This document shows, piece by piece, positions 38,501-41,500 of a stretch of DNA of 64,000 nt. Source of the DNA: Escherichia coli O157:H7 (GTDB lineage: Bacteria; Pseudomonadota; Gammaproteobacteria; Enterobacterales; Enterobacteriaceae). The position numbers were made by a program. The stretch lies in NCBI RefSeq assembly GCF_013167455.1, contig NZ_CP038328.1. One strand, 5' to 3'. Numbering within the stretch: the first letter of the stretch is position 1; each line of letters starts with the position of its first letter.

Positions 38501-41500
38501 CTGAATTTACGTGTTATCGGCGGAGATTATCATTACACAGCAGCGGGGCAACTGGCTCAACATGAAGACACTTCTACGGTGCAACTTAGCGGCGATCTGT
38601 TTAGCGGGCGCTGGGGCACGGATGGCGAGTGGATGCTTGGGATTGTTGGTGGCTACAGCGATAACCAGGGCGACAGCCGCTCGAGTATGACCGGAACTCG
38701 CGCCGATAACCAGAACCACGGTTATGCGGTTGGGCTGACCTCAAGCTGGTTTCAGCACGGTAAGCAGAAGCAGGGGGCCTGGCTGGATAACTGGTTGCAG
38801 TACGCGTGGTTTAGCAATGATGTTTCTGAACATGAAGATGGCGTGGATCATTACCATTCGTCGGGGATTATCGCCTCGCTGGAAGCGGGGTATCAGTGGT
38901 TACCGGGGCGTGGTGTGGTGATTGAACCGCAGGCGCAGGTGATTTATCAGGGCGTGCAGCAGGATGATTTTACCGCCGCTAACCGTGCGCGCGTGTCACA
39001 ATCGCAGGGTGATGATATTCAGACGCGGCTGGGTTTACACAGCGAATGGCGTACCGCTGTTCATGTCATACCAACATTAGATCTGAATTATTATCACGAT
39101 CCCCATTCGACGGAAATTGAAGAAGATGCCAGCACTATCAGTGACGATGCGGTGAAGCAACGGGGTGAAATAAAAGTGGGAGTCACGGGCAATATCAGTC
39201 AGCGAGTTTCGCTGCGTGGTAGCGTGGCGTGGCAGAAAGGGAGTGATGATTTTGCCCAGACGGCAGGGTTTTTGTCGATGACGGTGAAATGGTAATCGCT
39301 GTCTGACCATCACTATTGCTGGATGCGGCGTAAACGCCTAATCAGGCCTACGGAGAGCATTTGTAGGCCTGATAAGACGCGGCAAGCGTCGCATCAGGCA
39401 TTGGCGCGGTTGCCGGATGAATCCAAACAACAACCTCACTTATTCTGCGTGTGCAGCATATAGTTCACATCCACGCCGGGGCCGAGTTTAAAAGTATTAG
39501 TGATCGGGTTGTAATGTAGCCCGGTTATATGTCGCTCTTTAAGGCTTGTCTGATCTACCCAGCCCAGCAGTTCTGCCGGTTTAATAAACTTCTTCACATC
39601 ATGTGTACCTTTAGGCACCATGCGCAAAATATATTCCGCGCCGACTACCGCCATCAGCCATGACTTGCCGTTGCGGTTAAGCGTCGAGAAAAAGACATCG
39701 CCGCCCGGTTTCACCAGTTGCGCACAGGCTCTGACCACTGACTGCGGATCAGGGACGTGCTCCAGCATCTCCATGCAGGTCACCACATCATACTGCCCGG
39801 CATGTTTTGCCGCGTGCTCTTCCACGGTTTCCTGCACGTAATCCACCTGAATGCCGCTTTCCAGCGCGTGCAGCTTTGCCACCTGCAATGGCTCAAAGCC
39901 CATATCCAGACCGGTCACCGTCGCGCCTTCGCGCGCCATACTCTCGGCCAGAATGCCGCCGCCACAACCGACATCGAGCACCTTTTTGCCAAATAAGCCG
40001 CCAGCACGCTCGGCAATATAGCTCAGACGCAGCGGGTTAATGCGGTGCAGCGGTTTGAACTCACCTTCCAGATCCCACCAGCGGGAGGCGACGGCTTCAA
40101 ATTTAGCGATCTCTTCGTGGTCTACGTTATGGTTTACCGGCGATTTTTCGGCATTCATTGGCACTTCTACTCCGTAATTGGCAAGACAAACGAGTATATC
40201 AGGCATTGGATGTGAATAAAGCGTATAGGTTTACCTCAATCTGCGCGGCTGTGTTATAATTTGCGACCTTTGAATCCGGGATACAGTAGAGGGATAGCGG
40301 TTAGATGAGCGACCTTGCGAGAGAAATTACACCGGTCAACATTGAGGAAGAGCTGAAGAGCTCCTATCTGGATTATGCGATGTCGGTCATTGTTGGCCGT
40401 GCGCTGCCAGATGTCCGAGATGGCCTGAAGCCGGTACACCGTCGCGTACTTTACGCCATGAACGTACTAGGCAATGACTGGAACAAAGCCTATAAAAAAT
40501 CTGCCCGTGTCGTTGGTGACGTAATCGGTAAATACCATCCCCATGGTGACTCGGCAGTTTATGACACGATCGTCCGTATGGCGCAGCCATTCTCGCTGCG
40601 TTACATGCTGGTAGACGGTCAGGGTAACTTCGGTTCCATCGACGGCGACTCTGCGGCGGCAATGCGTTATACGGAAATCCGTCTGGCGAAAATTGCCCAT
40701 GAACTGATGGCCGATCTCGAAAAAGAGACGGTCGATTTCGTTGATAACTATGACGGCACGGAAAAAATTCCCGACGTCATGCCAACCAAAATTCCTAACC
40801 TGCTGGTGAACGGTTCTTCCGGTATCGCCGTAGGTATGGCAACCAACATCCCGCCGCACAACCTGACGGAAGTCATCAACGGTTGTCTGGCGTATATCGA
40901 TGATGAAGACATCAGCATTGAAGGGCTGATGGAACACATCCCGGGGCCGGACTTCCCGACGGCGGCAATCATTAACGGTCGTCGCGGTATTGAAGAAGCT
41001 TACCGTACCGGTCGCGGCAAGGTATATATCCGCGCCCGTGCTGAAGTGGAAGTTGACGCCAAAACCGGACGTGAAACCATTATCGTCCACGAAATTCCGT
41101 ATCAGGTAAACAAAGCGCGCCTGATCGAGAAGATTGCGGAACTGGTAAAAGAAAAACGCGTGGAAGGCATCAGCGCGCTGCGTGACGAGTCTGACAAAGA
41201 CGGTATGCGCATCGTGATTGAAGTGAAACGCGATGCGGTCGGTGAAGTTGTGCTCAACAACCTCTACTCCCAGACCCAGTTGCAGGTTTCTTTCGGTATC
41301 AACATGGTGGCATTGCACCATGGTCAGCCAAAGATCATGAACCTGAAAGACATCATCGCGGCGTTTGTTCGTCACCGCCGTGAAGTGGTGACCCGTCGTA
41401 CTATTTTCGAACTGCGTAAAGCTCGCGATCGTGCTCATATCCTTGAAGCATTAGCCGTGGCGCTGGCGAACATCGACCCGATCATCGAACTGATCCGTCA

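Follow-up and report, generated by a model that had tools for sequence, protein, structure and literature searches.

The chromosomal gyrA gene of an Escherichia coli O157:H7-lineage isolate has a wild-type quinolone-resistance-determining region

The stretch of E. coli DNA analysed here, 64 kb in length and referred to below as the window, carries the chromosomal gyrA gene of an O157:H7-lineage strain with a fully wild-type quinolone-resistance-determining region (QRDR), a reading to which we assign a probability of approximately 0.97. No sequence evidence that contradicts a wild-type gyrA was encountered. An initial annotation of the window had reported that codon 83 is TCG (Ser) and that codon 87 is GAC (Asp), and had concluded that fluoroquinolone resistance mediated by gyrA is not to be expected. 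Direct reading of the sequence together with its translation shows that both codons were placed exactly and that both residues were correctly assigned (Table 1). The start codon of gyrA lies at 40305, and codon 83 therefore begins at 40551 (40305 + 82 × 3). The 17-residue peptide quoted in that annotation corresponds to codons 78–94 (40536–40586), and the range to which it was attached, 40542–40568, covers codons 80–88, HGDSAVYDT.

Table 1. Features of the gyrA locus. Positions refer to the window.
Feature	Position	Strand	Basis
Extended -10-like element TGTTATAAT, 45 nt upstream of the gyrA ATG	40252–40260	+	Sequence reading; conserved in K-12
gyrA coding sequence, DNA gyrase subunit A, 875 aa plus stop codon	40305–42932	+	ORF list, translation
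QRDR, codons 67–106	40503–40622	+	Protein identical to K-12 MG1655
Codon 83, TCG (Ser), wild type	40551–40553	+	Sequence reading, K-12 comparison
Codon 87, GAC (Asp), wild type	40563–40565	+	Sequence reading, K-12 comparison
Codon 122, TAT (catalytic Tyr122), directly preceded by Arg121	40668–40670	+	K-12 comparison, motif search
GyrA box QRRGGKG, residues 560–566, C-terminal domain	41982–42002	+	Motif search
Codon 678, GAA (Glu), D678E, GAC>GAA	42336–42338	+	Only amino-acid difference from K-12

The QRDR has been defined as residues 67–106 of GyrA (PMC9953508, citing Yoshida 1990). A scripted comparison of this region with GyrA of K-12 MG1655 shows that 40 of 40 residues are identical, and the nucleotide changes relative to K-12 within it are all synonymous (codon 84 GCG>GCA, codon 85 GTC>GTT, codon 91 CGC>CGT and codon 100 TAT>TAC). 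It can also be seen that the residues at positions 51, 67, 81, 82, 83, 84, 87, 106, 119, 122 and 196 are those of K-12 MG1655; among these, A51, A119 and A196 are sites that we take to be non-classical positions reported in connection with quinolone resistance. Comparison with K-12 thus revealed no resistance substitution in gyrA at codons 83 or 87, elsewhere in the QRDR (67–106), or at positions 51, 119 and 196. Since Ser83, Asp87 and the whole of the QRDR are unchanged, the earlier statement that the gene lacks S83L or any substitution of the D87N/G type holds. The known E. coli resistance alleles S83L, D87N/G/Y/H and S83L+D87N affect the same gene and the same codons, but their substitutions are absent from the window. 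A single transition, TCG>TTG, would give S83L, and each of D87N, D87G, D87Y and D87H (GAC>AAC, GGC, TAC and CAC, respectively) is likewise one base change away from codon 87 as it stands.

The open reading frame that contains these codons has the features of a complete gyrA gene. Its product scores 1309.7 bits against the NCBIfam equivalog model for gyrA, TIGR01063 (cutoff 877), which places it within the family over its full length, and 1258.7 bits against NF004043 (PRK05560; cutoff 902). The Pfam breakage-reunion domain PF00521 spans GyrA residues 32–507, and six C-terminal stretches match PF03989, corresponding to the six blades of the beta-pinwheel. Solved structures of E. coli GyrA, among them 6rks, align over the full length of the protein, residues 1–875. 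In comparison with the quinolone-susceptible reference K-12 MG1655 (b2231, NP_416734.1), the protein has the same length of 875 aa and is identical at 874 of 875 residues; the QRDR, Tyr122, the GyrA box and the flanking ubiG and yfaA genes are all shared. The two genes differ at 35 nucleotides, of which 34 are synonymous. There is no difference at the gyrA locus from the O157:H7 gene encoding WP_001281251.1 (for example in PV15-279, NZ_AP018488.1), and the gene order yfaL-ubiG-gyrA-yfaA-yfaT is that of both K-12 (b2230–b2233) and O157:H7. At the DNA level, positions 40100–43000 are 100% identical in many E. coli O157:H7 chromosomes and 95–99% identical in most other E. coli. With this degree of identity to K-12 GyrA and to O157:H7 DNA, chance resemblance is not an issue. 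Together with GyrB, the GyrA encoded here would be expected to carry out ATP-dependent negative supercoiling. Large antisense reading frames within gyrA, such as 40467–41438 on the minus strand, were set aside as mechanical shadow ORFs of a clearly coding gene.

The occurrence of this allele in the population was addressed by an exact search of 5,426 complete E. coli genomes with a 40-mer (40537–40576), placed such that a change at position 2 of codon 83, or at positions 1–2 of codon 87, destroys every 28-nt seed. The wild-type 40-mer in its O157-type form was present in 296 of the 5,426 genomes, and the wild-type K-12-type synonymous haplotype in 639; these counts apply to each synonymous haplotype separately and do not represent the species-wide fraction of wild-type alleles. 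The O157-type haplotype with TTG at codon 83 (S83L) was found in eight complete genomes, mostly of O157:H7. Resistant derivatives on this haplotype accordingly exist but are rare, and the ratio of 296 to 8 indicates that wild type is the normal state of the lineage. The top matches of a literature search for QRDR surveys specific to O157 included no paper focused on that serogroup.

Three alternatives bear on how the locus should be read. Were the reading frame the paralogue parC, encoding subunit A of topoisomerase IV, both the residue numbering and the inference on resistance would be wrong. ParC (TIGR01062) has a homologous breakage-reunion domain (PF00521) and a similar helix-4 motif, in which Ser80 and Glu84 are the equivalent quinolone contacts, and the NCBIfam parC models do give strong partial matches to the window's reading frame. 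All of them nevertheless remain under their curated cutoffs (581.5 bits for parC_Gneg, TIGR01062, against 628.9, which leaves the protein outside that family), whereas TIGR01063 is exceeded by a wide margin. The six C-terminal blades and the GyrA box are present; the box presumably marks gyrase apart from topoisomerase IV, and ParC is not known to possess it. Taken with the near-complete identity to K-12 GyrA and the shared neighbours, these observations lead us to reject parC: the model scores, Tyr122, the GyrA box and the gene order ubiG-gyrA-yfaA identify the reading frame 40305–42932 as gyrA with certainty. A further possibility is that the allele, although its QRDR is wild type, is not functionally so, because D678E itself lowers quinolone susceptibility. 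This substitution has been described in one strain after stepwise exposure to enrofloxacin and classed among resistance-inducing substitutions, although the passages of that paper that deal with D678E give no functional test (PMC11721436). Against it, the gyrA allele with D678E as its only change relative to U00096.3 was found in 152 susceptible genomes and 1 resistant genome; for the D678E+A828S allele the corresponding counts were 637 and 3 (PMC7067475). In some sequence types D678E is found together with S83L+D87N, and one ST38 isolate has it alone (PMC10638923), a distribution that fits a lineage marker. The substitution is outside the QRDR, in the DNA-wrapping C-terminal domain formed by the PF03989 blades, at a distance in sequence from the drug pocket (83/87/122), and the exchange of Asp for Glu is conservative. 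Because the gyrA DNA is common to many O157:H7 genomes, we regard D678E as a polymorphism of the lineage. An effect of its own on susceptibility is exceedingly improbable: as a resistance substitution it was discarded on the overwhelming susceptibility of genomes with the D678E-only allele (PMC7067475), despite its classification in the passages of PMC11721436 that concern it. With D678E as the sole change in the protein, and with this allele so strongly tied to susceptibility, the earlier prediction that gyrA mediates no fluoroquinolone resistance here is supported.

The remaining alternative concerns the strain rather than the gene, namely that it is non-susceptible to fluoroquinolones through determinants outside gyrA, so that a wild-type gyrA would be uninformative about the phenotype. 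Plasmid-mediated determinants can give low-level quinolone resistance without target mutations, and the candidate loci all lie outside the 64-kb window: parC, parE and gyrB, through mutation, the plasmid genes qnr, aac(6')-Ib-cr, qepA and oqxAB, and the regulators marR/acrR/soxR, through increased efflux. A search of the window for parC, parE, gyrB and acquired quinolone-resistance genes found none; it contains core chromosomal genes only. In E. coli, resistance of clinical significance nearly always starts with a change at S83 of gyrA, and high-level resistance is therefore very unlikely alongside a wild-type gene; S83L is also rare on the O157-type haplotype (8 against 296 genomes). We consider that non-susceptibility by this route has a low probability, if a higher one than an effect of D678E. 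The wild-type gyrA prediction is one for the locus and not for the phenotype of the strain, and the initial annotation was right to confine it in this way, given that the window lacks parC, parE, gyrB, qnr and comparable genes.

The wild-type reading of gyrA has a straightforward expected consequence for drug action. In DNA gyrase, GyrA is the breakage-reunion subunit, with Ser83 and Asp87 on its helix 4, adjoining the catalytic Tyr122. In their wild-type form these two residues anchor a water–Mg2+ bridge that positions the keto-acid of the fluoroquinolone in the cleaved-DNA complex. They have been described as the anchors of this bridge (PMC9953508), and the biochemistry of E. coli gyrase supports its existence, with a conserved serine and an acidic helix-4 residue as anchors and a role that is mainly one of positioning (PMC9917921). 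With both anchors intact, the drug should be able to trap the gyrase–DNA cleavage complex. Established structure–function work thus predicts, because Ser83 and Asp87 are both retained, that the allele in the window would confer normal drug sensitivity on gyrase, which in E. coli is the primary target of quinolones. A wild-type gyrA QRDR is an ordinary result of a kind that is already known: it states that the primary fluoroquinolone target is unmutated in an O157:H7 isolate, which is routine genotype-to-phenotype annotation with no bearing on any open question. In practical terms, the call extends to gyrA only, and codons 83 and 87 each stand one base away from the classic resistance substitutions.

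The intergenic region between ubiG and gyrA is 146 nt long (40159–40304). It contains the extended -10-like element TGTTATAAT, which is presumably the -10 element of a putative gyrA promoter. A scan of positions 40100–43250 for -35/-10 consensus promoters did not call TGTTATAAT, as no acceptable -35 was present, and a terminator scan of the same interval gave no convincing terminator after the gyrA stop codon. The only difference from K-12 in the intergenic region is at 40240, 12 nt upstream of TGTTATAAT, where T replaces A. It is just conceivable, and in our view most doubtful, that D678E and the 40240 A>T change subtly alter wrapping or supercoiling by gyrase, or the expression of gyrA, in the O157:H7 lineage; if so, they could slightly affect quinolone tolerance or supercoiling-dependent gene expression. 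The neighbouring ubiG gene (39436–40206, minus strand) is 256 aa long when the reading frame is taken mechanically from an upstream ATG. In an identical O157:H7 record it is annotated at 240 aa with a start corresponding to window position 40158, which is an ambiguity of the start codon only.

The window extends from menB to beyond ada. Its first part comprises menBCE, pmrD, the arn operon, ais, nudI, yfaZYX, rhmD, yfaVU and rpnE; these are followed by glpCBA, glpTQ, a small island, inaA, yfaE, nrdBA, ypaB, yfaL, ubiG and gyrA, and finally by yfaA, yfaT, yfaS, yfaQ, yfaP, rcsC, rcsB, rcsD, micF, ompC, apbE and ada. Positions 1–21000 are 100% identical to O157:H7 genomes. In Xuzhou21, WS4202 and other O157:H7 strains this interval is matched in two pieces, with approximately 1.3 kb more; an IS1203-family transposase is annotated there in these genomes, and the window is without this insertion.

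The MFS transporter gene yfaV of the L-rhamnonate cluster (16142–17432) is 1291 nt long, a length not divisible by three; an identical O157:H7 record lists the gene as frameshifted, and in K-12 it is intact. The yfaQ gene (49927–51576) has an in-frame stop at codon 265 (50719–50721), is recorded with an 'internal stop' in the O157:H7 record and is annotated as intact in K-12. The alpha-2-macroglobulin family gene yfaS is a pseudogene with a run of nine G residues at 48521–48529, where O157:H7 PV15-279 has ten. With the G9 run its frame, 45412–49926, is continuous save for one in-frame TGA (49330–49332). The G9/G10 difference may reflect genuine slippage at the homopolymer or an artefact of sequencing.

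Two segments differ in gene content from K-12. Between yfaP and rcsC there are only 274 nt (52358–52631) at the site where K-12 has the approximately 7.3-kb atoS-atoC-atoDAEB cluster, and the genes for utilisation of acetoacetate and short-chain fatty acids are therefore absent from this locus. Between glpQ and inaA, a segment of approximately 3.8 kb (26412–30166) carries genes for a hypothetical protein, a LysR-family regulator and an MFS transporter; in K-12 this place is occupied only by a short yfaH pseudogene remnant.

Repeat and RNA elements were also identified. Two tandem 114-nt units of the REP/BIME type lie between rcsC and rcsB, with Rfam naRNA4 matches at 55481–55557 and 55595–55671, which is one unit more than in O157:H7 PV15-279. 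A third match of the naRNA4 type is located between nrdB and nrdA (32442–32505). The antisense small RNA MicF is encoded at 59332–59425 on the minus strand (116.8 bits, gathering score 79), divergent from ompC (59759–60862) as in K-12, and nothing abnormal was seen in this arrangement. MicF represses the porin OmpF, and would bear on low-level quinolone tolerance via the mar and sox regulons.
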